Shown here: positions 1 through 39,955 of the stretch, one piece after another
Layout of the letters: each line of letters begins with the position of its first letter
How positions within the stretch are numbered: the first letter of the stretch is position 1
Source: Candidatus Omnitrophota bacterium
Lineage (GTDB): Bacteria; Omnitrophota; Gorgyraeia; Gorgyraeales; Gorgyraeaceae
Reading direction: 5' to 3'
DNA: 64,000 nt
NCBI GenBank assembly: GCA_043821705.1
Contig: JBDRCN010000045.1
Location: 22,400-86,399 of the forward strand
Program-made: the position numbers and the translations under genes
Notes under the pieces: model-generated
Told to the model about the DNA's origin: nothing
Databases searched by the model: none
The model's input: only the letters and a program-made list of their open reading frames with translations

Positions 1-3000
1 ATCTAACTCTACATTAAATGTACCCATAAAACTGCCGGCTGTATTAAAAACTGAGACTATATATTCTTTAAATATAGTGGAAGGATCCGGAAGAATATCC
101 ACGTTATTAACGTAATCAAGTATTATATCACCCTCTGAAACCTCAAAGTTTGGATCTTTTACTAAGCTTTCCCGAGATAATTTATCATTATCTTTATTCT
201 CCAAAAGCACTTCCTCTAATTTTTCTGCTACTTCCTGATTGCGCTTACCTCTTCCGTGCGGTATATTCCCTATAAAAATAGCACCTCCAAATTTTTCATA
301 ATATGTCCTTATATCCTCCATTTGGTCATTTATAACCTTATTCCCTCCGCAAGAAGCCACCACTACGATCGCTACACTTCTTAGATTCTTTGTATAATTC
401 AGGTAACCTATGCTATTCCCGGTATGTACTCTTGGCATAAATACATCTATAGGGATGCGTTTTTCTTCAGGAACCGGCCTTCCATTATAAGTTATTCCAT
501 TATCAAAATAATACTGAATCGTAGGTACATAATCCGTAAGAACAAAAATCTCTTGGATTCCTCCAACTGTTCTTCTTACAATATACTTTCTTCCTTTTTC
601 TATCTCTACTTTTTCCACATTGTATCTTAAATCTCTATACTTACTAGCGGCGATATCTATCCAAGGTTCCAATGGCCCACGGTCAAATACAATCAGCATC
701 GTCAGCTTCTTATCACTAAATATATCTTCTGTTGGAACCATTTTTTCTTTTATCCCCATATCCTTTATAGCATTAGACATGTCTATAGCATCTTGCGTGA
801 TAAATCTGCCGTCAAACCTTGCAAAAATAGATGCAATCGAAGCTACAGGTATAGGATCGCCTGTTCTTTTATACTCTTTATAGTATTTTTTATATTTAGA
901 AACAATGACCTTTTCTATTTCCCTCTGATAACTATCTGGGACATTATCGCTAAATATAAGATCAAGCGGCCTTTTGAGCCTATTCACATTGGCAGCTATT
1001 TTTTCCATGTCATCTAACGGCCTTTCTATGGGTGAAATAAAATACTCTTCATTCTTATCAAATACTTCTACGAAATGGCCATAGTCCAACAAGCTCATAA
1101 GAAAATCATAAGAGTATGCCCTATTTGGATCAATAGTATTATCTTGGAAAAAGCCCTGATTATCTTTTATGTGTTTTTCGTATACTGCTTCAATGGTTGT
1201 TGGGTAAAGGTGGTCTTTGCCTAGCGCCATTAAATAATACGCAGAATTATTGCTAAGATTTTTTACAAAGGTTTCTCTTATGTTATCGCTTTCATGCTCA
1301 GTTAATGTAAACTGCCTGACATGTAAAACATTCATCCATATAGATATCTTTTCTAAAACCTTTCTTAAATCAATTTCTTTAATATCCTGGGCGTTTTTAG
1401 TGAATTCATTTAGTCTTACAGCAATCTCTTTACCAAGCTGGGCTTCATTTCTGCACTTTTTTAAATCAATACCCAATGTTGCTATTAAATAGTACATATC
1501 AGGAAACGTAAAACGTTCTAACTGAGAGCCCATATAAGACTGTAGTTGGATATTATCAATATCAGTTAAAGTTAAATTGCTGTATTTTACTATCAGGTAA
1601 TGGCCTTTCGTAGGGAAGGACTTTACGTCTTTAAAAAACTCTGGATTGGTCTTATAAAAATCTACTATTAAATTCGATAAATAGTGTTGTGAACGCCTTA
1701 GATCTACTATGGTTTCATCCCCTAAAGTAGCTATACAAGCCTTAAATATATATTTTTTATCTTCTTCTAGTAATCCTTGAATATTATTAATAGATTTCAC
1801 CCTGTGAAATGCAATAACTGATCCATAATCACCTTTTTTAATGTTTGATATTGCTGCCCTGACAAAATCTTCGGCTAAATCATCCTTCTTTAACTCTAAT
1901 GCATATATAATTCCAGATGAATGATCAGGATCATATTTAAAAAGATCTATAGTAGCATTCACAATTATTTCTTTTACTTCTTTATTTAATTCCATATTTT
2001 GTCTTTTAAACTTCTGCAGCACCTCTTTCAATTTAGACAAACTTTTTATATTAGCTATAATGGATTTAAAAACAACTATCTTTTCTTTCTGAGATATTTC
2101 GATATTAGACAAATTTAGGATCAAAAGAGCTGTTTCAGGATCTTTATTATTACATAAGCCCACAACAGTCTTTGTAACCATATTCTTAGTCCTAGAGTCG
2201 AACCCGCCTGATTGAATAGTCTCATTTTCAAAAAGGGCTATTATAGCTTTTGTATCTCCAGTTTTACTTATACCTCTTATGATTTTATTCTTTTCCTCTG
2301 ATGTTATATCTCCTAGATCTATATCAGGCAATATTCCATATATCCAGTAGGATCCCTCAGTAGTCTCTTTCGAAGTATTCAATATATCTATAAAGGTAAA
2401 TAGCAGATCTATTTTTTCTTCTGGGCCAAGTTCATTATAAATCCGCTTCAAGATAAGAAATACGCCTTTTGTTGCTTTATCCGTAGATGTGCTCTTTAAA
2501 AAACGCATAGAAACTGAATAAAGCCTCTTTCTAAGAGGTTCCGGCATTGTGCCTAAATCATATTTTGCGTTAATAGACGATAATGCTAATTCATAAGTTC
2601 CATTAGTTAAATTAGGGGCCTCTAGGATCTCTAGCATAGATAAAACTATTTTTTCTCTATTTGATTTTATATGAGCAATATTCTGCATAATTTTATCAAA
2701 CACGTCTTCATTTAATCCTTCATCACCCTGCCGTACACTAGACAAGGCTGTTAGAATATCTGCATCAAGATTCTCAGAAGCATTTGTTATACGAACATAT
2801 TTTCTTATCTGACTTATGGTATAAAGCTTTCTATTGTCGATCTTCGGATTATTTAACGCAGCTCTAAGATTGGATATAAGATCTCCTTTCATCTGGTTAG
2901 TAATCATATGTTTACTAGCTCCGTAGAAAATCTCTCGCAGGGCAACTATTAAAACACTTCCCAGTGCAGCATACTGAATACTAGAAATATTTGTATTTTC

Positions 3001-6000
3001 AAGGCCCTTGATCATAGTTGATATCATATCCGTATCTATTATTTTCTTATTTTCAATTAGGCTATTTATAAGAAGATTGCCTGCTGTCTTATAGAAATCA
3101 TCGCTTCTTCTTCTATCGCTAGCTAATTCATTTACTATAGCTTTTATCGCGACTTTGTTGTTCTTCAGATTGTCTCTACCAGTAATTTTATTTCCGGTAA
3201 CTATTGCTACGACGCCTACGGTGAGATTTCTGTTAATATCCTCTAAGATAACAACTGTTTGTACGTTACCACGGTCTTCAATAATGCAATTTTTGCCTTC
3301 TTTTAGAATTATTTCTTCTCCAGTTTTACTATCTTTAAGTTCTATTATCTCAGTTTCAATATCAACTGCTCCGTCATTAAGATTTGCTGTAGCATACCCT
3401 ATCACTCCAGAAACAATATAATTCCCAAGCTCATCATCTATTTGAGGCTGTGTTTCGTCAGGGATTAGGGAGCCAGTGTCTTTTTCTTCATCTAGTTCAT
3501 TAAGTTTTTCTTCTATCTCTATCTTTTTCTTCTTAAAAAATTCTTTAGCCGCATCTGAGGATTCATTATCATCAATAGCTTCATTTATTATCTCAAGAGC
3601 TTTATTGTAATTCTCTTTTGTTTCTTCGCTACCAATCTTATTTAGTTTCTCCAGATATTTAGCTCTATGTTTCAATTGTTCTTTAAATACTTCTATAAAG
3701 ACTTTTCCTTTTTCTTCAATTTTACTAATAGCCTCTCTAGTCTCTTCATTGTATAGATCCTTTAATTCTTCAAATTCTTCATGGCCTTCCTGTATTAATA
3801 GATATTCATAACCTAGATCCTTTTGATATAAGCTAAATCCAAAAGCAACTACTTTATTAGTCTTATCTGTTGCAACATAAAAAACACTCTTCTCTCTAAT
3901 GATGTAGTTTACGCCACCACCCTTTTCATCTATCAAATATACCTCTGGGTCACTTAATGGAGCATAACCATCTTCTTCAGAATAAAAATATGCACTATTA
4001 TCTACTCCAACTTTATCCATATCCCATGAAAAGAGATTATCGCTACAATAACGGAATAATCCAAAAAGCGCAGTATAGCTTTCAATTTTTCTATCACCAT
4101 ATAGCCAATGATGATCACCTTTTTCATCTTTTAATGGACTTGATTCTATCAGAACAGGTCCTTTTTCTAATATTTTATCTAATTTTTTCTTTAGAAGTCT
4201 TTCTTCTGGTAATGTTTTGACTCTTTTTATCATCTCGCCTTTAGGCTGCTGTAATTTTTCAATGTCCTCTTTTGTTATTTCTTTATCCAATAATTTTTCT
4301 ACCAACTCTTTGCTTGTGTAATCTTCAACCGGTTTTCCTTCCATAACAGGAACTATCGTATTGTAATATTTTGGATAGTTGACAGGATCTCTGCCTTGCA
4401 AATATAGAATATCTTTAAACTGTTCCAGAGGCAATTTTTTAATATTCTCAGCGCCATCAAGTCCTATGGAATCATAATAAGTGACCTCATTTGTCTCTTT
4501 GCTAAACGATGTGATATGGACTGAATGAGGTCCATGGTTATCAATTATCAGTATCATGCCGTATTTTTGGATATTCGTGTCCGCAAGCCTCTCCTCAAGG
4601 GTCACCCTTCCCTTTTCCTTGTATGAAAGGGTTTCTTCCATTTCGAACCTTACATCACTGCCGTAAAGCTCTGCCTGCTGGTTCATATAATCCCTCAGCT
4701 TATCAAAGGGAAATAAACTTTGATCGGAAGAATAAGTTATATTTGCTGCATAAATATCAATATCTCCATATGTACTTAGCCCGTTGTTTTTTTCAACATC
4801 CTTTAAAATACCAATCTTATCGAACATTGAGAGTGCAGCAAATATTGTGCAAGGTAAAGACAGGTCAAAAGGACCTTGCGCATTATAATGAATATTTGGA
4901 TATTTTGTATCATTTGACGGTTCCGCCTCAGTGGGTGGATCGTATACTGTCGGCCTTGTTTGTTCATCTCCTTTGGTCTGGTGTTGGACTAGGATATTAT
5001 TGATTGCTTCTCCTAGGCGAACTATCTTCACATCATATTTCCCATCCTCATTAAGCGTAAGTTCTAGCCTGTCTTCTTTCTTAAGAGGTTCTTTTTCTCC
5101 TGGTATATAGACTCTGTCTTTTCCGATTTTATATACTAATTTTCCATTTATAGATTCTTTATCTAGTTTTATTACATCATCTCCTATTATAAGCTCTCTG
5201 GCTTCTTCGTTAGAAGCAAGGCTAAGGACTTTTATACCCTTATCTACAGTGCCACTCATATCAGCCAGGCTTATGCCAGAGATAGTGGCAGTGAGATCGT
5301 TAGAAGGCGCAGTAAATGCTATTTTATATATTGACTCTTTATCCGGGGTGATCTCTATGCCATTTCTTGCTTCAAATACCACTTCACCATCTTCATCTAA
5401 TATGTCTTTTTTGACTGTAATAGTCCTCTTGCCTGTCATCTTATCCCACGTAATCTCAGAATTTGATTCATTGAAGCTAACAGTAATGCCATTCATTCTT
5501 AAATTTATCTCTTTATCTGAGATCATCTTCACTTCTCCCACGCCTCCACCACCAAATGTTACAGGCATATAGCCTTCATCAGGAACAGTTTCAGGTGTAT
5601 AATTATCACCTATAGGCACGCCAGACATAATCTCAGTTCCTAACGACGAAGGAGATTGGATGTTTTGATCTAATTCAGGCCTAGACATTATTGACTCAGT
5701 GTCGCGTTGTTCAGGTTCTTTGCTTTCTGCAATACTGCCTTTTCTAACAACTTCTATACTAAACTTCCCATCACCTTTAGGAGTTAGTTCTAACTGATTT
5801 CCACGATAAACCTTGACTTGTCCTAATATATTTATTCCTTCTTCTGGGATGTTTTTGAAGGTAAGTATTATAGACCCATCAGCTTGCGGCTCGCTTAGAT
5901 CTACCTTATCTCCTATAATAAATGCCTGGGCTTCGCCATTAGAAAGGGTAAAGGTAATCTCTTTTACTCCAAAGAAACTCTCTACATCATCTATATCAGC

Positions 6001-9000
6001 AAGGCTTATACCTGATATAGTAGCTGTAATGCCAGTAGGGTAGGAATGTTGAGGAAATGGGAAGGTTTGGCCTGAGTCGGGTTCTGGGATTATTAGACCA
6101 GTGTCGGAGTTTTTCTTAGGCTGGCCTTCTTTTTTATCTGTACTTACAGGGATAAGCTTCATCTTCTTTATATTAATAGTGCAATCTGGTTCATTTAATA
6201 ATATTTCATTTTCCCCATACCTTTTTCCTGTGTACATTTTTATCTTAGTGACACTTGTCAAATCTAAGTTTGAAGGCATATATATCTTTTTAATGCCATC
6301 TGTAGATACATCTATTTTAAAAGACGAGTCAAATATTTCCTTTCCATCAGACGTTACGAAGCTAATAGCAATTTCTTTAAGCCTGCCTTTGGATTTAAAG
6401 TTAGTGCCTGACGGTGTTTTTCTCACATCCAATTGCAATTCACACCCAGTAAGGTCTAAAGGCTTATCAAAAACAAAATCAACATAATTATACTCGCTAT
6501 ATATTCCGCCTGCTGAATAATATTGGCTTACTCCATCAATAAATATATTCATCCTGCCTACTGCTGATACGATAGATCCTATATTTCTCATTGTTGCTTT
6601 TTCAATAAAGATAAGTGGCGCTACATTTTTAATGGTTGATTCACATCTTAAAAGCCATTTATCCTTTTTATCCTTACATTCGTAACTCGCAATCAACGTA
6701 TATCTAAAATCTTTTCCTCCAGCTTTTGCGCGTGTTTTATTAACTAAATCTAGCACACTCTTTTTCATCATAGGATGCGGCAGCTTCTTAACTTGTTCTC
6801 CAATTTCTTTAAGAGAGCCTGTAAATATTTTCTGCTCAGGAATAATAGAGCATTTACTATAAAATCTCCAGGAATAAAAAGTATCTGGATGTTTTTCTAA
6901 CTCTTTCTTTGCTCGCAATGTCAAATCATACTTAAGATTTTCTCTTGAAAATGCAAAACTAATAGAAACGTATCTAAAAAAGTAGTGTCGCAACAATGGG
7001 CTTTTTATTTTCTTAGCCTGCTCTTTTATCTCGGTAATAGTGCCTATAAATCTCTCTTCAGGAATCTCTAACTCATTTAACCATCCTCTTTGCCTTTTCT
7101 TAAAATCCATACCAATTTCTTCTGGTGCTTCTGCTATTTTATATCCTGCATTTCTTAGCTCAAATTTAACCCAACCTTCAGACATACCATAGCTACCATC
7201 ACGACCACTACTCTCTTGAATATTGTTAGGACAACCTTTATCCAGTGTCATGATGCCAAATTCATATTTAATGCCTTCTTCTGCATTGTAAAATAGGCGT
7301 TTACTAACTTTATAATAATCTAAATATTCTTTAGCATATTGTCGCATTCTTGAATCCTCTAATGCCTCTATTTTTACCCTAAGTTCTGCGAGCGTACCTG
7401 TAAGTTTCAGCGGCTTAGGTGGCAATTCTTTCATCTCTACCTGCCAAGATTCTCCTGGCATCTCCTTTACAAATTTCACGGTTAAAATATACTCTACACC
7501 TTCCTGCAGTTTTGGTAGATTTTTCTCAAATTCTTCTTTAGCTACTTTTTTGATTTCTGCATCTTCTGTATTGCCTATTTCATGTTTAATCTCAGAATAT
7601 GAACCTCGAAACTCTGTTTCTATATCTTTTGAACTGCTTAATAAATCCTTTGCCAGTATTTGTTCAGTAAAAATCTCTATCGGGTCCTCTTCTAGCTCCT
7701 CTTCTAGCTCCATTGATATATCTTTAACTAATTTATCTTTCTGCAGTTGCGTGATTGATTTTATTTCTTCCGGCTCTAAAACCCCTTTTCTTGTTTTGCC
7801 TTTACCTTTGCTGGGAAAAAGGCTTATTTTCTCACCAGAGCTATATTCTCGCCCGTCAAGAGTTATGTCTTTTAAGAAAGTAACGATCCTTTCTCCATCT
7901 TCATCTCTATTGCCTATATCTACATCAATACCATTATAGAGCTTTACCTTTGTCATATCTTCTAGCTCTCTTAAAAGGTAAAAAGGTTTTTTATTTTTTA
8001 AGACTGTATTATATATATATTTAATTGGCTCTGGAGGTAAGTATGAATGCTTTGGTTCTTCTTCAGGTTCTGGGGCAGCGTGTTTTTCTAACTTTCTATC
8101 TTTACTTTCTTCTAAAATCTTCTGGGGTTTTTGTGGTTCTTCTTTTTTCTCAGAATCTCCATCGATAATATTATTCCAATAATTATGGTCCATCCAGATC
8201 TTGCCGTTTTCATCCATTGACCACTTGGCGTAATATTCATATCCATCATCATATAACTCCTCTAACTCTTCTTCTGTATAGAGACGCGTAAATCTATATG
8301 TCTCTAAATCTAACTTACAGCTTGTCATTCTTTCTACCTTTGCAAGCAATACTTTACTCTTTTTGCATTTTTCCAAAATTTCCGAAAATAGAGGATATGA
8401 AAAATTGAATAAAGATTCTGCAATAGCTGCTTGATCTTCTTTAAAACTACCTTGTCCATGCCCTCCTGCACAATCCTCAAGCTCTAGGCTCTCCGGCCAG
8501 CTAGAATCATCATTTGTCCATATATAAGGTATATAATCGTCATTAAAGTCCATAATGTGGAAAAGTTCGTGATGAAAATACTGATAATTGGAAAGAGTCA
8601 TTGTTGTAGGCCAAAAACGTGACTTAATATAATTTGTTACTTCTTGATTACTACTATGCCCTACATATTTAGGATTTATTGCTATCTTCTTAAAATTTGA
8701 ATTTTTTAAGAAAATCTTTGGATATCTAAGAAGCTGCTCTTTTACAGCATGAACCTTTTGGTATAAATATTCTAATCTTATCTCATCTCTTCCAGGTGTA
8801 GTACGATCTGTCTTAAGCCATTCATCTATTGCCTCAAAATCTAATTCATCAGAAATACCCAATAGAGAAACTTCTATCCCGAGATTTTCAATATCAAGTA
8901 CCTGAAGATAAATCTCTTCTTTAAAGTAATTCAATCTAGCCTTTTCTTCCTTGTCGCTACCTCTAATCACTTCTACGCTATACTTCCCATCATCTTTAAG

Positions 9001-12000
9001 GGTTAATTTTAGCTGATTTTCAGGATAGAACGTGCCTAAACCTAATATATTTACCCCATTTTCTCTGAAGGTAACTATTATTGTCCCATCAGCTTGCGGC
9101 TCGCTCACATCTACCTTATCTCCTATAATAAATGCCTGGGCTTCGTTGTTATAGGTAAAGGTAATCTCTTTTACTCCAAAGAAACTCTCTACATCATCTA
9201 TATCAGCAAGGCTTATACCTGATATTTCAGCTTCGACGGATGTTAGATCAGTAGAAGGTAAATCTATTCTATCAGCGTCTTTTTCAGGCATTAGTGAGCC
9301 AGTGTCAGGCTGCTCTTTTTTCACAAACTCTTTAAGCTGCCAGATAAGTTTGATAAGTGTCTTCTGCGTTAGACCTTCATCCGAAGAGGCTGCCTTATCA
9401 ATCTTGTCTTGTATAAATCCAAATGCCTCTAAACCAAATGCCTTTATAAATAACTCTCTATTAGTCCAATCATCGCTTAAAATTTCTAACGGATTTGGAG
9501 AAATAAGCATCAGCATTGAAATATAAGCTGGAATATAAACACCTTTATAAACCTTAGAAATTCTATATGGCGAATATCTAATAAGATCTTTAGTCTCATA
9601 ATATTTTGCATCATCTATCTTGCTCTTTTTGACCCAGACCTTTTTTCCTTTTTTCCCATTGACTACTTTATTGGCCGATATATAGCCCTTAGACCACTTG
9701 GCTTTTACAGCTGTATTTGGTACAAGGCTATATTTTTTACCATCAAAAACAATCGTATAATATCTGCTAAGATCAACTTTAATGGGAGATAATGGTTGAG
9801 TAAAATCTTTGTTAGCTGTACGATATTTTACTTTTTTCTCTTTGGCAAACTTTGTATTATCAATACTTTTCTGTATTCTATATTCCTCAAATCTTCTTTT
9901 GATGTCTTTAGGACTAGGTAGTTTACCTTTCATTAATTTTCTTAATTCTTTTAACTCTTTCCTTTCGCTTCCTTTAATTTCTCTATATTCTAAGAGTTTA
10001 TCTATCTTTTTAAGTGCTTCTTGCTTTATTGGGTATCTTTTTCCTAATAACGTATCAAATATACCGAGATCATTGATTTCTTTTATTAAGCCGTTTATCT
10101 TTGCTTTTAATATAGCAATCTCGGCTTTTGTCTTATATTTTTTCAAGTCTTTTTTCTCATCTGCGCTTATCGTTTTATTATTCAACCTTTCTTCTATTAT
10201 CTTAGATGCCCTCTTATACGCATTAGCTGCCTCTTTATAATCCAGACCTGTAGCGTTTAACTTTGCTTCGTTATAACATTTATTAATTTCTTCAATTACT
10301 ATATTTCTTTCTATAATATCTTTTTCTTTTTTCAATTTTACAGCTTCATCTATAGTTATATTTTTGCTATTTAATCTGCGTTTTATTCTCTCAAGAGTTT
10401 TCCTATACGCATCGACTAAGGTTACGGATGAAGTATCCTTTGAAGTCAAATAAGATTTAATGTCTTCGTAATGAGTTTCTGAACTTAGAGAAGACCTCCA
10501 TTCCATACTAATTCCGTTAAACTCACCATTGTCACCTCTTGCAGATATGATACTAAGATCATATTCAGCATCTATAATATTAAGGTGTTTGTAGAAATGT
10601 TCAAAAAATAAGGCTCGTATAAGTGGGCTTTTTATCTTTTTTGCTTTAGCTTTAATTTCTGAGAAGGTCCCAGTAAGCTCTATTTTGTCTGGAATATTTG
10701 TTTCGTTAATCCATCTCAGCTGTGTATATTTAAATCCTATATCACATGGCTCCGTAGGTTCTAAGATCATCGACGGGCTACCATGACTATTAAGCCATTG
10801 GACTTTGCTCCTTTCCCATTCTTCATTACTATACCAAGGGGTAAAATCAGGGCCTGGAGAATCTATTGCTTTTCCTTTTAGATCTAGATTTAATCCTATC
10901 AATATGCCAATAGTGTATGTTACGCCTGCTTCAAGTAGTGGTCTAATCTCTTTAAGACAGTGATCCAATGTTTCCTCAGCATACTCTTTCACTCTCGGGT
11001 CTTGTATATTCTCTATCTTGACCCTAAGTTCGGAAAGTGTACCTGTTAACTTCAATGTCTGCGGCGGGATTTCTTTCATCTCTACTTGCCATTCTTCCCC
11101 CTTCATAGTTTTAGTTAATTTTATATCTAGAACATACTCTACGCCCTTTTGTAGCTTGGGTAGCTTCTTATTAAATACCTTTTCAGCTTCCTTTCTCATT
11201 CTTGCATCTTTTATATTATTTATTTTATCTTTAATACTGGAATAGGAGCCTTGAAATCTCCTATTTATACTTCTTACCTTATATCTTACACCATCTTCTG
11301 AACGGATAAGTTCTAACTGAGTACCAGTTGGGAAGAATTCTTTGCCTTGAGGGGTATCTATATAGGTCTCTTTTGTAAATTCTACTGCGATGATTTCCTC
11401 TCCATCCGGGTTATCAACTTCTTTTATGCAATTTGGATATGATTTACCATCTACCTCAATTCCTGTAGAGCCATATATAGTTAATCCATCAACTGATGCT
11501 AGATCTGTAAAGAAGGTGATGTTTATAAGAGGAAGGATTTGTTTAGTGTCAATGTGAGGGTGAGTTTCATCAGGCATTATCGACCCACTGTCGGATTCTT
11601 TAGATTCTTCTTCTCTTAGTAATCTCTTATATGCCTTTATAAACATAACTCCTAAGTTCTTATGAGGTGCTATATAATTACCAAAGGCTCCATTGTGGCC
11701 GAGTCTATCTTCCGCCTTTTCCCAGAACGCTGGCCATGATATATCCTTACCTTTAAGTATCTCAGTATTTAATAGATATAAAAGCGGATCATTTACATAC
11801 ATTGTCCCTGTTCCTTTAGTAGATATAATATGGGCTTGGGGAGTTTTATCTAATATATCTGATATCTCATTATAACCACCGCAGGATCTAAGGACAACTA
11901 GCTCTGCTTCTGGGTTTATTCTCTTAATAGTCTTATTAACATGATAACTATGCCCCATATGGACTTCTATATGGACCTTTTTCCCTTTTAAAGCCTTATC

Positions 12001-15000
12001 TATAGCAGCCTGCCCTTTATCTTCGAATTCTGGTTTATTGACATATAGTTCAATCCTTTTACCATTAGTAGGTCTTGATATTATAAGGGTATAGCTATCT
12101 TTATCTTTAATCTGCCAAGCTTTTTTACCTTTATATTGATTAAGGAGACTATTGTAAGAGGCCTTGCCATCTTCATCATTATAAGAATAGAATCTCTGGA
12201 TGCTCACTTCGTCTTCATTAAATAGGTTCTTAGTAGGTAGTTTTGTAATATCCTGCAGTTTATATTTTTTTGACATCTTTTTAAACCAATCAGTGCTAAG
12301 TACTGCCTTTTCGCTGAAGAGGCCTGATAATAAGCCGTAAATAACTCTTGCCTCTTTATTGTCTTTCTTGAGGACTTTATGGTATTCTTCCTTTATGGTT
12401 TCTTGGAGGACTTTTAAGACTTCTTTATCCTGTATCATGCTAAAGGTATCAGCTATAATTACAGCCTGTGATAGTAAATCTTTATCATCGGACTTAATCC
12501 TTACAAATCGTTTAAGTAAGTGTATCTTTTCATCCTTTGTTACTGTATTCAAGAATTCATTCAATCTATTGTAGCTGGCACATAGTTTAATCATCACTCT
12601 AAACTTATTGTAATCTACCTTTTTAAACAAAGTCTTAGCAGTCAATCCTTCTTTTTTCATTTTATTAAGCATTCTTGTAAATAGGCCATTAAAGGTGGAA
12701 GTAAAGACTTCGTTTTCGCCATAGACCATAAGAGTATAGAGTGTTTCGGAATCAAAAGTTTCTACTGATCTAAAACGTATTGTGTCGGATGAGTCATGTA
12801 GATAGTTTATGTCCCATATCGCTCTAAGACAAATCATTTTTAGGCCATTGGTTATAGAAAAACTTCCTAAATAATCTGGCTGTCTTTTAATTTCAATAAT
12901 ATTTTTAAGTAATAGACTAGGGTCTTTGGCTATATTATAGGCCTTTTCAAAAGACAGGTTATTCTTTACTATCTTATCTAAAAGTAATGTCGTCCAAAGT
13001 GCATCTTCCTGAGATTTCAACGGTACATTTTTAACACCCCAATCATATAGCCCGCACAATTTTTTAACTATAGGATTTTTACTGCGTTTCAATACTTCAA
13101 TAAAATCTGAATTTCTGGTTAAGGTTGCAAATATAAAATCGGTCAGCTGTCCTCTATCGTTTCCTCCAAAAATTAACTTCGACCCTCCATCAATAGCTTC
13201 AAAAGGAGCAAAAATAACCTTGGATTCAAGAAATTCTAGTCCATAAGGTTGATCAATAAATATCTTATAGTGTCTAGATAAATTCTCATTAAAAACATAA
13301 ATAAGATCTAGTATTTCAGGAGCCCAAGACTTGCTTATCCATTTTGCTAAAAATGGTTTTACTATGAAGGTATCGCCTACTATTTTCCCTTCTATGAGCA
13401 TAACTTTAAATATTTCCTTTGCCCAAGGTTTATCAATATATTTATCCATATCTTCCATTGCCCTCTTAGGATCATCTCTAGCTAACTCCATATAATAAGA
13501 TTTTTCTTTTTCAGTATCACGCTCGCTTAAAGATATTCCAGCAGAAGAAGGGCTTAATATGCCTTCGGTAGATGGACTGACAATAAAATCAAAATCTTCA
13601 TCTACAGGAATATCCGACCTGCCTGTAATATCTTTTGTCTTTTGAGGCTCTTTTTCCTTGGCACTACCTCTATCTATTTTATATTTCATCTCTTTTGAAA
13701 CATAAACCTGATATTTTAATTCTGAAATCTCATATGGTGATTTAGCTATATCTTGTTTTTTGATAAGATCTGTCGCGCTATCTATACTAGATTTCTTTAT
13801 AAGTACTCTTTCCTTTATTTTTCCATTAACCATTCTTACACCAAGGACATAAAGGCTTTTATCCTCACTCCATCCATCTAATTCATATTCAACATCATCT
13901 TTATGAATAAGGCTGTGTTTTTGGCCATCATATACAATAATATAGTCTTTGCTGAGGTCTGATTTTATTAGTTCAGTTACCTTATATCCTATTCCATCTT
14001 CTTGAAGTACGAGTCCTAATTGGGTGTATTTGGGGAAAAATTCAGCTTCTATGGTGGTGTCTTTTGTAAATTCTACTATTGTAATTCTACCCTCTGCTCC
14101 TATTCTTGTTTTAACCTCTTTTATACAGTTTGGATATGGTTTACCATCTACCTCAATACCTGTATAGCTATCTATAGGAGTAAGCTTATCAATGGATGCA
14201 AGGTCTACGAAGGGGATGATGTTGGAGAAGGGGAAGATTTGCTCAGTTTCAGGTTGAGGCTGAATGATCCCATCAGGCACCAGTGAGCCACTGTCAGGTT
14301 CTTTTTCAGGTTCTGGGGTTTTCTTTTCTTGTATTCTTTTTAAAACTTCCAATAGTTTAGTATTTGTAGGGGCGCCTTCACTGTCCAATCCCGACCTTGT
14401 CCAAAAATCAATCATATCTCCTAAATTCCCTACTCCTAACACATTTCTATCTTTATCTAAAAATGTTATAATGGGAGTCATGGCTTTCTTAGCACCAAAA
14501 ATAAAAGGCACTAAAGCTGTAACTAAATTTGTACTTTCGGAAGTAAACTCCTCTCCATCAGAAGATGTTACCTTTATACCATCTTTCGTAACTTGATAGA
14601 AAAACTCCTGGCCACTTCCTTCTGGTATAATATACCCTTCGGAAATTATTTCAGAATCTTCTTCTATGCTGGGTTTATCTATAACGTTATAATCATCAAT
14701 TCTATGTAAATAACTAACATTAATATTATCGGTTGAAATGAGATTATTTAATAAAGATCCTCCTATTAAACCTCCTAATATCTTACCTAATTTCAAAGAA
14801 ATGCCTGCTTCAATACGATCAAGAGTATGGCCATCTCCGTCCGGCTGCCAAAATTCCCCGATTTTCATAAAATTGAAATTTGCTTCACCGTAATCAGTAT
14901 TTAAAGATATGCCTCCACCCCATTGGTACTGATCCTCGGGATCTATGGAATAATTAAGCCCGCTTGATGTAAATGGTGTACGCCCCCATGCATTAGCTTT

Positions 15001-18000
15001 TAGCAAAATATCTTTACTTAAACTAAAATCTATATTCATAGCACCAACACCAAACCACTTTCTGTAGAAACGACTGACATTACCGCTTAATCCAATGCTA
15101 ATATCATCTGCAATTTCAAAATCTGCATTTAGTCCTATCTTGAATTCAGATAAATATCCTGCAGGATCATCAATTATACTAGGATTTATAAATCCATTTA
15201 ACAATGCATAACCCGATATGAAAAGATTATCAATGTAATCCTGCTTAAAACTTTTATAGATCCCAACAGATGGCTTGGCATACCAACTACTTGTCCCTAG
15301 ACTTGGGTTTATAAAGATATTTGTACTAATGCCGGCTCCATAGCTCATATCCTTAATGCCAAACAAACCTGGATAGGCACGATAAGCATCTAACATCATT
15401 CCTAGATAACTATCGCTTCTCAAAGAACTATATTCGTTAGTTTTTATCAAATCATCCACCCAGCTACGATAATTTAATGGTACATAACCCCATAGACTTA
15501 AACCCATATCAGTAGCATATTCACCTTTTTTGTCCATTGTTGATGCTGAACTTGCCATAAACATATTGCTTTCATGGGTTGATAATTGAAAGGTATTAGA
15601 GGATATCTTAATCGGCGACCAGCTATCGCCCAAAGGATTTACAATGCCCACATCTATCTTTGGATATAGATGTTCATAATCAAAGAAACCTTTAATATTA
15701 ATTTCATTGATAAAAGGCTTTTTCTCTGGTTCTACATCTTTGTTTTCCTCAAATATCTTCTGGGGCTTTTGTGGTTCTTCTTTTTTCTCAGAATCTCCAT
15801 GGATAATATTATTCCAATAATTATGGTCCATCCATATTTTGCCCTCTTCATCCATTGACCACTTGGCGTAATATTCATATCCATCATCATATAACTCCTC
15901 TAACTCCTCCTCTGTATAGAGACGCGTAAATCTATATGTCTCTAAATCTAACTTACAGCTTGTAATTCTCTCTACTTTTGCAAGCAATATAGAGCTTTCC
16001 CGACATCTAGTTAAAAGTTCAAAAAAGCTATGTCTTCCAAAAAACGAGTCTGCAATAGTAGCCTGATCTTCTCTAATATTTATCTGGCCATGATCACAAT
16101 CGTAATCTTTAGAACCTAAACTTTCCGGCCAAGAAGAATCATCGTTAGACCATAAATGAAACGGCAGATAATCATCTTTAGAATCTGCGTGATGAAATAT
16201 TTCATGATGGATGCTTGGGGTGCTGGTAATAAATATTCTTGAAAACCATTTTCCAAGACTAAAATTGTATTTATCTGTTTTCATGTTATAAATATAAGGA
16301 TTAACAACTATTTTTACAGTGATGCAATTTTTTAAAAAAGCCTCCGGATATACTGAAAGGGCCTCTTTTATTTCTAAAAGCTTCCTCTCTAATGTTTCCA
16401 GTTTATACCTTCCACTTATAAGCCATCTATTAGAAGAGCCTCTCAAGAAAGTTACTAGCGCATCAAAAAATCTTGGTATATCAACTTCAAATCCAAATTT
16501 ACTACTGATATCGCGCACATGGGAATTAATCTTTTTCTTAATGATTAATACTATATCAGCATCTTCCTGTAACCTTTTGCTTGCAAACTCTATAGCCATG
16601 CTATTCTTTTCAACAGCTTTTGACACAAATTCCTTATCGCCTCTGAACTCCATATGATAAATAATGCTTGGCGCTTGAACGACTATATCTAGAATAAACT
16701 CTTTATCATTTTTCAATCTATCGCTTGCAAACCGTATTGTAAAAGTATTTTTCACAGCCGCAGCAAAAACTATATTCTTATCATCCTTAAAACTATCGCT
16801 TACATATTCTAAGACTTTGGGGTTTTTTTCTATAGCCTTTAATACAAATTTTTTATTATCTATAAATAGAGAACCTACAATAGCTTTTTGGTCAAACTCT
16901 ATCTTGTCAAGCAATTCTTCCCAAGTTACTTTAAAGGTTACTCCATCTTCTGAAATGAGTTCTAATTGGGTGTATTTGGGGAAAAATTCAGCTTCTATGG
17001 TGGTGTCTTTTGTAAATTCTATTACTGTAATTCTACCCTCTGCTCCTATTCTTGTTTTAACCTCTTTTATGCAGTTTGGATATGGTTTACCATCTACCTC
17101 AATACCTGTAGAGCCATATCTAGTTAATTCATCAACTGATGCTAGATCTGTAAAGAGGGTGATGTTTGTAAGAGGGAGGATTTGTTTAGTGTCAATGTGA
17201 GGCTGAGTTTCATCAGGGATTAGTGAGCCAGCGTCTTTTGGTACTATTGATTTCTCTACAGGTACTAATGTTTTTAAAGGTGTTAGTTTGATGTGTGTTA
17301 TATAAATTTGGCCTATTCCTTTATTTGACAATTTCTGGCTTCCATACTTTTTACCACTATAAAAACGTATTTCCTTAACACTTGTCATATCCAAATCATT
17401 AGGTATATATATCTTTTTCCAGCCATCAGCGGATACATTTATTACAAAGGAAGGATGAAATATTTCTTGCCCATCAGATGTTATAAAGCTTATGCCGATT
17501 TCATTGAGCCTTTTATCAAGCTTGTAATGGAAAGAATCAGGCACTTCTTTTACGTATAATTCTAACTTACATCCAGTAAAATCAGCTGGCAAAGATGGGA
17601 AGCTTGTCGAAATATCACAACATACAAAATTATCATCTTTATACCTAGCAAGATCGCTCATATAATGTCCATACTTGCTGCTTTTGTACATTCCGTACTC
17701 CTCCCCAATGAATACGTTCATATTGCCATTTGTACTTATAGCTATTTCTACATCAAAACCGAATGAACGCGCAAGAACTTTCCTCCCGGGATAAGTTTCT
17801 AAGAAACGAATACTCTTCATTGTTTTCTTAAAAGCCATCTTATATATTATCCCTTTTATTTTTTTACCTTTTTTCTCAAATTCAGGAATTACACTAAGTT
17901 TATACTCTTTTACGTTCTGTTTTTTGCCTTCTTTGCGCTCCTTATCTATTAATTCTAAAGCAGCATCTTTCATGCTGGAATATTTAATTTTTTGAACTTG

Positions 18001-21000
18001 AGCAGAAATTCTATCTAATGTGCCATTGAAGTTTATTAGTTCAGGTAATTGAGGAACAATATCGTAGGTTAAACTCCATATTGGTACAACTGTATGTTCA
18101 AACTTTATCTTCCTTATCTTGACAGTAAGAGTATGTATAATATTATCATCATCCGAAGCTACAAAGATGGATCTGTCTTTAATAAGATCTAGCGTCATCT
18201 TTCTTAATAGTGGGCTTTTTATTGAGCGTGCATTTCTTCTTATTCTAGATATCGTACCTGAACGTGTAGCTGTTGCTGACTCGGCTTCATCTATCCAGGC
18301 ATATAATCTCTTTTTATAATCAAATACTATTTCCTGAGGCGTAGAAGCTATTTTATCACCAAAAGTTTGCATGGCACAGTTTACACCAACTTCGCCTTCA
18401 TCCAACAAGAAAGGCACTGTATAACTTATATCCTCATCTGTTACTACAATTCCAAAAGAATATTTTACTCCTTCTTCAAGGCCTATTTTATCTCCCATAC
18501 TAAGCGCATTATTTACAAAATAGTCCAATTTTGCTTTAGCATATTGTTTCATCCTAGGGTCTTCTATATTGTCAATTTGTGTTTTAAGCTCGGAAAGAGT
18601 TCCTGTAAAGCTTATCCTATCAGGCGGCAGTTCTTTCATCTCTACTTGCCAGTATTCCCCTTTCATCTCCTTTACAAATTTCACGCTTAAAATATACTCT
18701 ACGCCCTTTTGTAGTTTAGATAAATTCTTTTCAAACTTCTCTTTGGCAAGTTTCTTTATCTCTGGATCTTTTATGTTAACTATTTCACTATCTATCATAT
18801 GAGACGAGCCCTGAAAGCTCATACCTATACTCTTTACTCTATATCCTGCTCCATCTTCTGAAAGGATAAGTTCTAACTGGGTGCCTGCTTGGAAGACTTC
18901 TCTGCCTTTTGAGGTGTCTATAGTGGTGTCTTTTGTAAATTCTATTACCTTAATCTCTTCTCCATTTGGACCTGCTCTTGTTTCGATTTCTTTTATACAG
19001 TTTGGATATGGTTTACCATCTACCTCAATACCTGTAGAGCCATATATAGTTAATTCATCAACTGATGCTAGATCTGTAAAGAGTCTGATGTTTGTAAGAG
19101 GAAAGAACTGTTCAATGTCAATAATAGGGTGGGTTGGTTCATCTCGAGGCATTATCGACCCACTGTCGGATTCTTTAGGTTCTGGTGTGGTTGTTCCTTT
19201 TTTCTTTTTACTACTAATAATATCTTGATAAATATAGATTGGAACATATACTCCTTCATATAATTCAGAAATCTTAAAGTATGTATCTTCTAGATCTTTC
19301 TTTCTTAGGTACTTAACTGCCGTATCTATACTTGTTTTTTTCACCCATATCGTTCTTTTCTTCTTTCCATTAACGACCTCTCTAACTTTGACATATTTTT
19401 TGCGGTCTATATTTTTGATATTCTTACGCCATATAATATCCTTATTTGCAACAAGACTGTATTTTTTTCCATCAAAAACAATTGTAAAATTCTTGCTAAG
19501 GTCAACTTTATTAATGGGTTCTACTTTGCTCTTAAAAGAATACTCATCTTTCTCTTTCTTAATTTGAACATCTATAGTCAACACCCATCTTAAATCATGT
19601 TTCATCCAATATCTATCGATGGTAGATTCTGCTTCTTTTCGTAATCTTGGATTTTTTAGTTTTTTAACCTTGGCTTCAATCTCTGAAAGTGTACCAGTAA
19701 TTTTTATTGACTCTGGGTATTTCTCGTTAATTTCACCCTTAATACCCTCTCTTGTTGTCCCTACATATAAGGTATACTCTATATCATCTTTAATAAATTT
19801 TGATTCCTTTAATAGTTCTCGGGCAAACTCTTTCAATGCAGTATTTTTTATATTTGCTATTGAAGTTTTTAGTTCTAGGACTGTGCCCATAATTACTATA
19901 GACTCTGCATCTTTTTCTTCAATCATTGATGCCTTGGTATAATCAGTGCCTATCTTCTGCGATTCTGTCTCCTTTATCTTCAATGTAAAATTATAAACCT
20001 TGTCTGATTTAAGGCCTCTGGCATTAATTAATATCTCATGCAAATATTTCTTTACTCTAGGATCTCCTAATTCCTCTATGTCTTTTTTAAATTCCCGAGG
20101 ATACCCTTGATATATAGAGAAATGAGTAAATCTTAAAGGAGGAAATTCTTTTATTTTCCCCTCATATATAGACTCTTTTTCGGTTTCTCTAACATCTATG
20201 GTCAAAATATAAGATACATTTCTCCTCAGTCCTGGAGTATCATTTAATATACGCTCAGCACGTCTTTTCAAATCAGTATCTTTAACATTACGAATTTTAG
20301 TCTTAATCTCTGAAACATCACCTTCGATTCTGAGGAATCCAGGAGATAGCTTTCTAATATCAATCGATGTTGTATATTCACTTCCTATATTTTGGGGTGT
20401 ACTTTCTTCTACATCAAAATAAAGTATATATTTTATATTTTCTTTTTTTGTCAAATCCTTTGCTCTATCTAAAGCTCCCGCTAGATATTCTTTCAAGTCC
20501 TCATCACTTAGTCTGTCAATCTTTCTCCTGATCTCTGAAAAAGTACCGCTAACTTCCATATTTGTTAAATCAATAGATAAATACGCAGTCTTACCTTTAT
20601 AGAGAGAATCTGTTGAAGTTAAGTCTCTAATTATAATTTTATCTTTGTTAGATCCTTTCGAGATCTCCTTAAACTGGACTGTTGGCCTACCGTTAGAATA
20701 AGTTATGCTCAAAACATAGTTCTCTCTTTCACTCCCCGGTGTGTTGTTTTTTAAATACCTTTTAATTCTCGGGTCTTCTATTTTTTCTATCTTATATTTA
20801 AGTTCAGAAAGCGTACCAGTAAGTTTAAGTGGCTTAGGCGGCAGTTCTTTCATCTCTACTTGCCAGTATTCCCCTGGCATCTCCTTTACAAATTTCACGG
20901 TTAAGATATACTCTACACCTTCCTGTAGTTTCGGGAGATTCCTTTCAAATTCCTCTTGAGCAAGTTTTCTAGTTTCAGGATTTTTTGTATTGTTTATTTC

Positions 21001-24000
21001 ATGTTCAATCTTAGAATATGAACCTCGAAACTCTGCTTCTATAGGCTTTGAACGATTTGATAAATCCTTCGTTAGCGTTTGTCCAGTAGAAATTACTGGT
21101 ATATCTTGTATCTTTTTTGGTTTTAGTTTAGCAGTTAATATATCTTTAACTAATTCATCTTCCTGCGGTTGTATGATTGATTCTATTTCCTCTAGCTCTA
21201 AAGTCCCTTCTATTGCCTTGCCTTTACCTTTACTGGGAAAAAGACTTATTTTCTCACCAGAGCTGTATTCTCGTCCGTCAAGGGTTATGTCTTTTAAGAA
21301 AGCAACGATCCTTTCTCCATCTTCATCTCTATTGCCTATATCTACATCAATACCATTATAGAGCTTTACCCTTGTCGTATCTTCTAGCTCTCTTAAAAGG
21401 TAAAAAGGTTTTTTATTTTTTAAGACTGTATTATATACATATTTAATTGGCTCTGGAGGCAGGTATGAACGTCTTGGTTTCTTTAACTTTTTCACAGTAG
21501 AAACAGTTCTTGTCTCCTCCATATCTAACGCCCTTTTTACTTCATAACTTTTCCCATCTTTTTTAAGAGTTAGTATTAACTGATCTCCAGAATAAAACTG
21601 CTCCTGTCCTAATATATTTATCCCTTCTTCTGGGATGTTTTTGAAGGTAACTATTATTGTCCCATCAGCTTGCGGCTCGCTTAGATCTACCTTATCTCCT
21701 ATAATAAATACCTGTGCTTCGTTGTTATACGTAAAGGTAATCTCTTTTACTCCAAAGAAACTCTCTACATCATCTATAGCAGTAATTTCAACTGTGAAGC
21801 CAGGAATAAGAGGTTTTATTTCATCAGGCATCAGTGAACCAGAGTCGGATTCTTCTTCAATAATATCTGTTGGCACAAAAATAATCTTATCCTTCTCATA
21901 TTTAACCTTTACATATTGATTTCTCTCTTTTACAAATCCTATCTCGTTTTCTTCTGGCCACAGAGTCTTTTTATTTATCTTAGCTCCTTCCTTAAATGAC
22001 ACTGCCCAATCTTCATCGATATCCACCTCGGGTTGATTCCATACGTATAGCTTAAATTCCTCACCTTTTCTTACTATACCAGAAGTATTGAGCTTGTTTT
22101 TCTCTTTCTCAATCAATCCTGCTAGAATTATAGCCTTTTTAGCCATAGACTCCATTCCGCTTCTAGGGCCTTCTCCGTAATATGCAAAATTAAAGGCTTT
22201 CTTATAATAAATAGCAGAGTTCTTTAAACATGTAAGAGGATCTAAATCTTCTGGTAGATTTAATATCTTTCCAGCAGAAAAGACGTAACCCATGCTCTCT
22301 GGATCAAGCGGCTGTTTTACAGTCCTATCTCCTAAATAGAGATATATATCTCCTAATTCACTAGATGCTGTTATAAATCCTGGATCCTTCTCTAATGCCT
22401 TTTTGAATAAATCTATTGTTTCTAAAATATAATCGGGTTCCAGATTCTCTCCGTAAATTATATTATGTTTATAAAGTTCTGCCAGATTGGCATAGCCCCA
22501 GACAGAGCCTGGATCTTTTTCAATGGCCTTTTTTAAAAAATCTATTTTCTCTGATTCTTTTTTTAAGCCTACTGATGTGCTTCTTGCATATAAAATATAG
22601 GAAGATAACAGAGCTTCAGGTGTACCTATTCTAATCTTTCTATGTAGTTTCTTTTTAAAATGACTCTCTTTTAACTGCAGATATTGCCCAGGTTCAATTT
22701 TTTTGTATAGCCCGCCAGAACCTTCTAACGGAAAAGGCTCGCTTATGCCTACTCTAGGATTTGATATATCAACTATTATAGATTTGTTATCAGAAAGTTT
22801 GACTAAACTAGCTACATGATATACACCTTCTTGTACTCCACAGGACCATGTAACCTCAATAGGATCTATAGATAAGCCTGCCAATCTACCTAAGATTACA
22901 AAAAGCTGTGTAGAACCTACGCAATTAGCTGAACCAATATAGCCTTTGTCAGCATGTTCTTCATTGAAGACCTTGGTAAGAAGAGCTGGGTAATCACCTC
23001 TATCACTCTTAACTGCATTTTTTATAATTTTCGATAAACTATTAATCCTTTCTAATCTTGGCATATCTTTTATTTTTTCTAACTCATAATTATTATAAAA
23101 ACTAGAAATTTGCTCTACTATTTCCGATTGTTCTTCCAAAGAATATCCTAATTCTTCAATAGCCCCAGAAATTACTTTTTCTATATTAGTTTCAGGTTGA
23201 TTTTCTTCTCCATAACCACCTAAATCCCCCTTGGACCCTTCATTAAGGTCTAATTTCAATCCTTCACCCTTAAGCGCTGCTCTATTGTCTACATCTACAA
23301 TTAGAGATTTAATATATTCACTATCCTCTATAGATAAAAGAAAAATAGGTAATTTAATCCCCTCTTCTTCCAGGTGTTTCTTTATTGCTTCCTTCTGACG
23401 AGAAGGTAACGCTACTATAGCTACTTCATTAGGAGCAAGACGGCTAACAAATTCTTCCTCAAGAAACTCTTCTAGCTCGCCATTCTTCAGTGAATAAAAG
23501 CCTCCTTGAATAAAATGTCTACCATCGAATAAAACCGGAACTTGAATAGGAGCTTTCTGTGAATCTGTTTTGCGAGATTCCTGTTGACTAACTTTTATTA
23601 TATTCCCATCTTTATCAAATGTTACGTCAAAACTTATGTTTGCTAAAAGCATGGCAGTCCCAAATAAAGCCCCTCCTCCACCGCCAAAGGTAAATGTAAA
23701 GGTGTCTTCGCTGAGTCTAGCGGCATCATCTTCAGGTGCATCAATGCTGCTTGTATCCTTAGATTTAGGAGCAGATATTTCTTCAGTAGAAGTCTTGGTT
23801 TTTGGAGCTTGTTTGGAAGGTTCTGGTTCAACATCTATTACAAGCATACCAGTATCATTGTCTTTCTCGATACTAATATCTATCTTTTCTTTTCGAGCTA
23901 CTGAGTTAAATCTCTTTTTAAAATATTTTAATTTATCCTCATCCTTATTAAAATTATGTACGAGTAATATCCTTCCTTTAGGTTTTACTATTCGAAGAAT

Positions 24001-30849: not shown

Positions 30850-31425
30850 TTATTTAGATAGGGTTATTGTTTTTTGGGATTGGTACTTTCCTTTGCGGTC
30901 AGAGTAGGTAGTGTCACACTCTTCCTGGGACTCAAAGAATATGATCTGGGCTATGCCTTCATTAGCATATATCTTCACCTGGGAGGCTCCTGTATTGGAG
31001 ATATCCATCGTTAAGTACCCCTCCCAGCCTGGTTCTAGGGGAGTGACATTGACTATGACACCACACCTGGCATAAGTGCTCTTACCAGTACAGAGCGCTA
31101 GTACGTTCTTAGGCATCTTAAAGTACTCTAATGACCTGGCTAATACAAATGAATTCGGGGGAATAATGCAATATTCCCCCGAATGATCTTCAAATAGATC
31201 CTTATTTATATTCTTAGGATCAAGTATGTCTTCTTTCTTGCCTCTAAACAATTTAAACTCATTTGAGAGTCTTATGTCATATCCGAAGCTAGAAGGTCCA
31301 TAAGATATCTTACCATCTCTTACTTGCTTCATCTGGAATGGCTTTATAATATCTTCTTCCAAAGCCATTTTTTTTATCCAGGTATCTGGTTTTATTGACA
31401 TAGTTTTAACACTTTGAATATCCAC
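30850..31425 (-). CDS. dcd: dCTP deaminase
   Basis: [14 protein letters not shown]...[36 protein letters not shown]. The true start is probably the internal Met MSIKPDTW at about 31401, giving an ATGA overlap with nrdJ. Confidence 0.8.
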
Positions 31426-39100: not shown

Positions 39101-39136
39101 CTTGTGTCATGTGTCCTGTGACTTGCAACTTGAATA

Positions 39137-39955
39137 TTACCAGTCTTTTTCAACATTATATCTAGTCTCACCTATGCGCCTTCTTAGGTCCTTTTGTACA
39201 TCTTCTTCATCATCTTTTAATGCATCTAAGAGTCTCTTAGCATCTTCTTCTGACATCTCATCTTTTTGCTGGCCCTCTTCTTCCTTTTGGTCCTCTTGGC
39301 CTTGTTGTTTTTCTTGGTCTTCTTGAGATCCTTTATCCTGGTCTTTCTTTTCTTCTTCCTTAGACTTGTCATCTTTAGAATCACTTTTTTGTGACTCTTG
39401 TTTTTGCTGCTTCAGTAATTTTTTTATAAGTTCTATATTATATTTAGCATCTTCATCTTCAGGATCAATAGAAAGTGATTCTTCGTAAGAAGCTATTGCT
39501 TCTTCTAACTTCCCCATCCGAAAGTTAGTGTTTCCTATATTATAATATGTCTTTGCCTTAAGTTCATCATTTTTTGAACCTAATGTCTTTTCATACTCTT
39601 TATAAGCATCTTCATGTCTATCGATCTTATGAAGGGCATTACCGATATTATACTGAAGTTCATTGTTCTCTGGATGATCTATCTGAGCATCTCTCCACTC
39701 TGAAAGAGCTTCATCCATATTTTCCTCTTTATAAAGCTCCCTTGCCTTCTTATCCTTAGAAGACAATGATTCCTTCCACCCCCACCCTGCACTGGAAAAA
39801 GAAAATAATAATAAGAAACATAGTAAGACAACGGGTCCTGTCCGCCGATTCACCCCACAAGTGCTCAGGCAAAGCCTTGCGCGCTTGCGGGGGCCCCAAT
39901 CGCCGGCCACCCGTTGTCTTAAAATTCTTTTAATTTTTAATGCAGTGAAATTCAT
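39137..39955 (-). CDS. batC: BatC-like TPR protein with an acidic low-complexity C-terminus
   Basis: TPR repeats (YNIGNALHKIDRHEDAYKEYEKTL; YYNIGNTNFRMGKLEEAIASYEESL) and an E/K/D/Q-rich tail. Confidence 0.6.
   Translation of the reverse strand: MNFTALKIKRILRQRVAGDWGPRKRARLCLSTCGVNRRTGPVVLLCFLLLFSFSSAGWGWKESLSSKDKKARELYKEENMDEALSEWRDAQIDHPENNELQYNIGNALHKIDRHEDAYKEYEKTLGSKNDELKAKTYYNIGNTNFRMGKLEEAIASYEESLSIDPEDEDAKYNIELIKKLLKQQKQESQKSDSKDDKSKEEEKKDQDKGSQEDQEKQQGQEDQKEEEGQQKDEMSEEDAKRLLDALKDDEEDVQKDLRRRIGETRYNVEKDW

Follow-up and report, generated by a model that had tools for sequence, protein, structure and literature searches.

Among the gluzincins, MA(E), which are recognized by an HExxH motif followed, 20 or more residues further on, by a helix with a Glu that is the third zinc ligand, MEROPS family M93 is one of the families listed together in a published table, and BACCAC_01431 is its member (PMC3890501). 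Its structure, 4L7A, is deposited as an 'uncharacterized protein', and appears in a fold library as a putative zinc-binding metallo-peptidase, BACCAC_01431; a second structure, 9URD, is titled 'substrate import-associated zinc metallohydrolase lipoprotein'. LIC13305, a free-standing lipoprotein of approximately 31 kDa, has no activity on record (PMC7683387). Besides these small proteins, giant proteins of Omnitrophota with peptidase domains have been linked to predation (10.1101/2023.11.21.568195), and the pair of PF08241 and PF02518 forms the core of one Pfam module ('Module 1') of Omnitrophota long proteins (10.64898/2026.06.07.730766). In the present study, we describe two HExxH-bearing modules, modules 1 and 2, in a 64,000-nucleotide stretch of contig JBDRCN010000045.1 from a Candidatus Omnitrophota bacterium (GCA_043821705.1, positions 22,400 to 86,399; hereafter the window). 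Both are parts of one giant open reading frame (ORF) and not separate genes, a context that was absent from an earlier reading of the same DNA (the original prediction). With a probability of roughly 0.65, each module is a hydrolase domain that depends on zinc and is most likely a peptidase, with a zincin fold of the gluzincin type, and represents an unnamed family distantly related to M93 that is carried as a shuffled cassette in a giant protein.

Both HExxH motifs were found where the original prediction had placed them, at amino acids (aa) 4801 and 7346 of the giant protein, each followed by DDSSWPES, and the modules are paralogous as it had claimed, with 53% identity over 285 aa (aa 4690-4962 vs 7229-7508) and 72% identity over the C-terminal 164 aa. 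The near-identical tail that it quoted is present in both copies, and the DNA identity that it gave for this tail, about 93%, agrees with the 93.3% obtained over 252 nucleotides (window 15739-15990 vs 8101-8352). The duplication was thus borne out and the size of about 200 aa was not, since the module covers approximately 215 aa according to the envelope of the hidden Markov model (HMM) and approximately 265 aa with the N-terminal helix and strand; similarly, module 1 reaches window position 16539, beyond the proposed end of 16330. A search with the family profile found only these two copies in the visible 10,202 aa.

The profile of the two modules was compared with all 1.84 billion cluster representatives in an exhaustive HMM search, which returned 77 clusters at E≤1e-3, including 48 at E≤1e-10. 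Of these 77, 75 carry HExxH, and the remaining two are fragments of 75 and 123 aa. Conservation was assessed over 73 aligned domains, with residues numbered along module 2 (residue 1 = aa 7229): H118, E119, and H122 of the HExxH motif, A165, and N250 are found in all 73, W142 is found in 72, E162 is Glu in 70 and Asp in three, and D163 is Asp in 70 and Asn in three. Regarding the proposed third zinc ligand, the homologues carry an E-D-x-A motif, always acidic at the position of this residue, 40-75 residues downstream of HExxH. The family consensus may be written as …YP…(H)HExFHxLD…W…GFAxxYG…EDQAT[IV]AE…KVExxTGCxFD…F.R…YYAKWS…MDxxYWN. This sequence pattern and the predicted secondary structure fit the gluzincin layout. 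A metzincin or Asp-zincin reading, which requires the extended motif HExxHxxGxx(H/D), with Gly three positions past the second His, was rejected because the +3 residue (D125) is Asp in 59 of the 73 domains, where Gly is outside the six commonest residues, and the +6 residue (D128) is Asp in just 38.

In the mechanism that we propose, one Zn2+ would be bound by three residues: the two His of HHE[IL]FH, which lie on the active-site helix, and the E-D-Q-A Glu, which is at the start of a helix approximately 44 residues downstream of HExxH. The Glu of HExxH would serve as the general base that activates a zinc-bound water, and the beta-strand ahead of the HExxH helix may align the substrate, as in other zincins. 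The C-terminal alpha/beta subdomain, from KVExxTGCxFD to MDxxYWN, is expected to pack on the core and probably shapes or caps the substrate cleft. The modules might instead be non-catalytic binding or structural domains, pseudo-enzymes on a zincin-like scaffold, and inactive copies do arise in this family: the closest relative, P0001 (locus L001 10001-11641; GCA_964546385.1; 33-45% identity), has two tandem modules, the second of which has lost HExxH (…SNSFFEIS…) and E-D-x-A (DDRQAIG), retains the C-terminal subdomain, and is likely a pseudo-enzyme partner. However, none of the invariant residues (H, E, H, W, E, D, A, and N) has been lost from either copy in the window, and invariance of these columns over 73 domains is unexpected for a scaffold-only role, which we accordingly regard as very improbable.

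The relationship with M93 was established by profile methods. The family profile matched 4L7A (E 3.8e-5) and 9URD (E 1.5e-3) among PDB sequences with hmmsearch, with HHExxH and E-D-x-A in register in both, and the alignment of a trimmed 44-sequence family alignment with the 4L7A/9URD fragments by hhalign gave a probability of 94.5% and an E value of 8e-8 over 135 columns. Among 41 relatives, nine matched PF15890 (Peptidase_Mx1; best E 6e-8), ten matched TIGR04549, and 38 matched NF047804, the LIC13305 family lipoprotein model (E down to 4e-14), the last over profile positions of approximately 120-247 of 274, which extend from HExxH to the Glu helix. The scores that were inspected were 16-20 bits for three relatives matching PF15890, below the gathering threshold of 25.6 bits, no more than 19 bits for TIGR04549, against a cut-off of 75 bits, and no more than 47 bits for NF047804. 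No Pfam family match was found for the C-terminal subdomain in the 41 relatives. The suggestion of a previously undescribed zincin-like family is therefore upheld in that the modules are zincin-like and are captured by no curated model, but not in the sense of an isolated new family, because profile methods tie the core to M93/PF15890/TIGR04549 and to NF047804. As judged from these alignments, the catalytic core is demonstrably related to a known, biochemically uncharacterised group.

AlphaFold gave a predicted local distance difference test score (pLDDT) of 46 with the two paralogues only, and a pLDDT of 81 with a predicted template modelling score of 0.81 for module 2 with 27 sequences. In the latter model, N-terminal helices and strands are followed by a strand (107-110) that runs straight into the helix with HExxH (113-126), a poorly predicted loop around W142, a helix that starts at E162 (160-172), two further helices, and a C-terminal subdomain consisting of a beta-hairpin (202-205, 210-214) and short helices. 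Foldseek returned nine matches in the PDB, every one of which was weak and every one of which was a zincin metallopeptidase, with 4L7A at the top (probability 0.80), followed by PPEP-3 and anthrax lethal factor; the non-enzymatic fold that was named in the original prediction as an alternative is not among them, and the other refuting outcome named there, HExxH not conserved in homologues, was not seen either, with the motif in all 73 aligned domains.

Metallohydrolases of the same fold that act on a non-protein amide or ester, such as peptidoglycan stem peptides or cross-links or glycan or lipid head-groups, have to be considered. NCBI calls the closest relatives that carry a name (TIGR04549) 'metallohydrolase', not peptidase, literature searches revealed no documented peptidase activity for M93, and cell-wall degradation has been proposed for the giant proteins of predatory Omnitrophota (10.1101/2023.11.21.568195). 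On the other hand, the PDB fold matches are all peptidases, from families M93 and M34, and no peptidoglycan- or carbohydrate-binding domain was detected adjoining either module. We consider a non-protein substrate to be unlikely, and a peptidase to be the preferred reading.

Regarding the site of action, the visible giant protein has a sole hydrophobic segment, at aa 31-49, which is a putative signal peptide or N-in signal anchor according to its predicted topology, and between roughly a fifth and a third of the relatives possess N-terminal hydrophobic or twin-arginine translocation-type segments. The single N-terminal segment and the secreted relatives give a weak indication that the modules probably act outside the cytoplasm, their targets being either proteins on the surface of other cells or the giant protein that carries them.

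Several points weigh against the peptidase reading and the location attached to it. The majority of relatives have no obvious signal peptide, such that the family as a whole cannot be assigned to an extracytoplasmic site, and many giant proteins of Omnitrophota have been read as cytoplasm-facing (10.64898/2026.06.07.730766). The modules of the window themselves lie outside every curated model: they had no relevant match in Pfam at E≤10, PF15890 included, and none with TIGR04549, while module 1 matched NF047804 at E 0.006 with 16 bits (equivalog cut-off, 250 bits) and module 2 did not match it, and the link to M93 was obtained through profiles built from the relatives. Literature searches also found no demonstrated peptidase activity or substrate for this family, M93, or LIC13305. 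Furthermore, D125 and D128, both of which lie just past HExxH and are less conserved, may be alternative metal ligands or second-shell residues.

A more far-reaching proposal, which we offer as a tentative one, is that the modules belong to a new MEROPS-level gluzincin family (approximately 77 clusters, the members in assemblies being mostly of the Gracilibacteria or Peregrinibacteria type) that is defined by a unique aromatic-rich C-terminal beta-hairpin subdomain. This family would have been recruited twice, as a mobile and gene-converted catalytic 'warhead', into a giant protein (more than 10,000 aa) that is exported. Either this protein would attack other cells at their surface, or the modules would cut it into pieces.

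The repeat anatomy of the giant gene is summarized in Table 1. With blastn, no other internal repeat of the gene is as similar as the tail tract (91.9% over 271 nucleotides), and the last 84 or so codons of the modules show a synonymous divergence (dS) of 0.29 and a nonsynonymous divergence (dN) of 0.034. In the module cores, the synonymous sites are saturated (proportion of synonymous differences, 0.75) and dN is 0.56, the two copies being old in this part. The sharp boundary in dS indicates recent gene conversion or recombination that affected only the C-terminal subdomain and the first part of the linker, and the dN/dS ratio of the tail, approximately 0.12, is indicative of purifying selection. 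In our reading, gene conversion has recently homogenised the C-terminal subdomains.

Module 2 is flanked by the two halves of a repeat that also exists in an uninterrupted copy (aa 2941-3270), and a third copy of the first half is located at aa 8197-8288. The distance between the halves is 23 aa in that copy, where no module intervenes, and 308 aa around module 2, and module 2 therefore behaves as a cassette of approximately 300 aa placed in a linker. A run of DUF4116 repeats directly abuts module 1 on its N-terminal side, and no sequence relatives of the regions flanking the modules were found in the PDB. The modules may thus be viewed as catalytic cassettes that have been shuffled to different positions of a protein that exceeds 10,000 aa.

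The position of the modules in linkers between repeat blocks, with low-complexity linkers rich in E, K, and P after them, also fits processing proteases that cut the giant protein into functional fragments after its export, acting in cis or in trans. However, no evidence of cleavage sites was obtained, and in nearly all other members of the family the module sits at the C-terminus of an ordinary 300-930-aa protein that has nothing large to process, which makes this role improbable. Among the three rivals, namely a non-protein substrate, self-processing, and a non-catalytic role, the last is the only one that the data disfavour.

The architecture of the relatives was examined by scanning a degenerate DNA pattern for YYAKW…MDxxYWN over the GTDB representative genomes. 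Six loci matched, and the module is encoded at five of them, two in Gracilibacteria and one each in Peribacteria, Peregrinibacteria, and an unclassified metagenome-assembled genome labelled 'bacterium' (1.02-Mb contig); the sixth, locus L002 of an Ignavibacteria genome, matched the DNA pattern and encodes no module, and was rejected as a chance match. The same pattern identified seven loci in a metagenome scan, two of which duplicate genome loci, and none in a scan of a viral collection, and an earlier scan of GTDB genomes with peptide patterns from both modules of the window yielded no matches. Each genome and metagenome locus with the module has an ordinary ORF in which it forms the C-terminal domain, and the complete ORFs are approximately 340-930 aa in length. 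The proteins of Gracilibacteria and Peregrinibacteria have an N-terminal anchor or signal, then tandem repeats of approximately 115 aa, and then the C-terminal module. This repeat (L006 3550-6336, L007 1215-3212, L004 2-1594) reads …DLDxxSPAxKLAxxQxxRAQKxALAxxLxPxLEEAxxRxLSW…EVPxEPxVxFADGKF…, and two genes with the anchor-repeat-module order stand in tandem at L007.

Searches with module 2 as a single sequence found nothing in Pfam, the PDB sequences, or a word-indexed database of 5.8 billion clusters, and a cleaner 44-sequence profile gave just three matches via the word index. The clusters that were looked up were all singletons or near-singletons with no informative names. A subgroup of relatives of approximately 320 aa (P0079-P0097) retains HExxH, EDQAT, and the final MDExxW and has no TGCxFD…YYAKWS insert of approximately 35 aa, and the insert therefore defines the subfamily that holds the modules of the window. 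Some relatives (P0035, P0043, P0052, P0063, P0069, P0070, P0078, and many of P0079-P0097) have Trp at the conserved Gly positions of the family, e.g., MTWCYFD and WFARNYWKEN, and these are probably proteins of organisms in which UGA encodes Gly (genetic code 25) that were translated with UGA as Trp.

The minus strand of the window can be read over positions 1-30606 without a stop, as one frame of 10,202 codons, the DNA of which has a G+C content of approximately 34%. The left end of the window cuts this frame and the 3' part of the giant ORF is outside, such that its length is a lower bound and a program-made list of ORFs omits it. Internal repeats with a mutual identity of 25-92% are abundant and make up most of the visible protein. 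A Pfam scan of the frame detected a PF08241 methyltransferase domain, a PF02518 HATPase_c domain, and peptidase-like domains, with the PF08241/PF02518 pair in the N-terminal part. The frame contains four HExxH motifs, approximately 0.1 being expected by chance from the composition of the protein (H 1.1%, E 9.0%). The view that the motifs are chance occurrences in a spurious or non-coding frame is refuted by the 10,202 stop-free codons at this G+C content, the in-frame Pfam domains, and the 77 homologous clusters.

The other two HExxH motifs, HEL[TA]H[VI]EQSNRG … EREA[FY]L, are located in a duplicated block of approximately 500 aa (aa 734-1223 vs 1808-2301) with 30-35% identity. In the first copy, for which Pfam matches were listed, the PF08241 methyltransferase region lies downstream. 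The spacing of this motif looks like that of another small gluzincin, and the blocks have no Pfam peptidase match.

Table 1. Features of the giant ORF and its neighbours. Positions are those of the window; aa, residues of the giant protein.
Feature	Window position	Strand	Residues	Remarks
Giant ORF	1..30555	-		First ATG = aa 18 at window 30555; at least 10,185 codons; carries both modules
Hydrophobic segment IISLVLVHTFFFTSVCYPA	30460..30516	-	aa 31-49	KK in front; Kyte-Doolittle scan, 19-aa window
Other HExxH, first copy	28120-28134	-	aa 825	
HATPase_c (PF02518)	25828-26154	-	aa 1485-1593	
Other HExxH, second copy	24883-24897	-	aa 1904	
DUF4116 repeat, best-scoring	16750..16857	-	aa 4584-4619	Pfam PF13475, E 7e-24, 3 stretches
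Module 1	15772..16539	-	aa 4690-4945	HMM envelope aa 4733-4945; family-profile domain score 183.9 bits; paralogue alignment
Module 1 HExxH (HHEIFHH)	16192..16206	-	H4801, E4802, H4805	
Module 1 E-D-Q-A	16060..16071	-	E4846	Proposed third zinc ligand
High-identity tract, copy A	15719..15989	-	aa 4873-4963	
Interrupted repeat, upstream half	8984..9209	-	aa 7133-7208	84.7% DNA identity to 21551-21785 (aa 2941-3019)
Module 2	8134..8922	-	aa 7229-7491	HMM envelope aa 7275-7491; 178.3 bits; paralogue alignment
Module 2 HExxH (HHELFHI)	8557..8571	-	H7346, E7347, H7350	
Module 2 E-D-Q-A	8428..8439	-	E7390	Proposed third zinc ligand
High-identity tract, copy B	8083..8351	-	aa 7419-7508	Subdomain LLAKVER…YWNNII and start of the EKKEEPQKPQKI linker
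Interrupted repeat, downstream half	7380..8057	-	aa 7517-7743	85.1% DNA identity to 20799-21479 (aa 3043-3270)
dCTP deaminase gene	30850-31425			
Ribonucleotide reductase large subunit	31406-36223	-		1605 aa
Bat/MoxR-type operon	36405-44604	-		

Besides the giant ORF, the window carries a gene for the large subunit of ribonucleotide reductase, which is interrupted by inteins (a splicing domain with a LAGLIDADG endonuclease, and a Hint domain near the N-terminus) and ends in a TSCPD domain; the dCTP deaminase gene lies just downstream of it. The Bat/MoxR-type operon encodes a MoxR AAA+ ATPase, a DUF58 protein, two VWA proteins, one with a BatA N-terminus, a TPR protein, BatD, and a TPR-SH3 protein. 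Leptospira was considered as the source in view of this operon, a G+C content of approximately 35%, and the LIC13305 link, but the match to BatC reached only 30 bits against a cut-off of 175 bits. Just upstream of this operon are two further genes, one for an M48 peptidase and one for a protein with peptidoglycan-binding domains. No tRNA or Rfam family was found in the window, and NCBIfam models revealed no family specific to a lineage.

A remote new zincin family is in itself not surprising. If active, the modules would represent a biochemical handle on the zinc peptidases of M93 and LIC13305, for which there are two solved structures and a MEROPS number and no activity on record, and on a family whose members in the searched genome assemblies came almost exclusively from ultra-small episymbiotic bacteria. 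They would also be a handle on the function of giant bacterial proteins, for which catalytic cassettes are the best clues to a role. The insertion of module 2 and the gene-converted tail together provide a clear example of how a giant gene is assembled and homogenised.

In comparison with the giant multi-enzyme proteins of Omnitrophota ('Archaeovorins'), the protein of the window shows a resemblance, in that it also exceeds 10,000 aa and combines PF08241 and PF02518 with peptidase-like domains. The SecA-like and transmembrane features reported for these long proteins are in their C-terminal part, which lies beyond the window here. The papers on these proteins mention C39, S8, and M36 peptidases, whereas 'HExxH' and 'zincin' appear in neither (10.64898/2026.06.07.730766; 10.1101/2023.11.21.568195) and 'metallopeptidase' does not occur in the former. 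Regarding other zincins, M34 (anthrax lethal factor and PPEP-1/-3), M90 (MtfA), and M91 (NleD) share HExxH and a Glu on a later helix with the modules, and single relatives give weak Pfam matches to M90 and M91; however, no sequence-level relationship to the modules of the window was detected, and the Foldseek matches to M34, secondary to 4L7A, were not significant (E≥3, template modelling scores of approximately 0.3).

The closest likeness is to M93. The two have in common an HHExxH active-site helix with a beta-strand before it and GF..Y(G/A)…(S/x)E-D-x-A on the next helix, and may be aligned from an N-terminal YP motif through the helix after the Glu; HHExFH of the family aligns to HHEFAH of 4L7A and 9URD, E-D-x-A aligns to S-E-D-I-A-E of 4L7A, and 9URD has a Y-W-N motif past the Glu helix, as in the family of the window. 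In contrast, identity is only approximately 11-12%, and the TGCxFD…YYAKWS insert is not in the M93 alignment. Members of M93 and TIGR04549 are free-standing lipoproteins of approximately 270-330 aa, whereas the modules are internal to a giant protein and have no lipoprotein signal, and no SusC/D-like or TonB-dependent-receptor Pfam matches were found in the ORFs of the window that were scanned. LIC13305 of Leptospira also differs in being a free-standing lipoprotein, and the scores of the relatives against its model are far below the equivalog cut-off. Taken together, these comparisons place the family, which has no name, as a distant sister to M93 and the LIC13305 lipoproteins within the known gluzincin group. 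The modules are not a new kind of enzyme, but a new branch of a known superfamily with a C-terminal TGCxFD…YYAKWS…MDxxYWN subdomain of its own.

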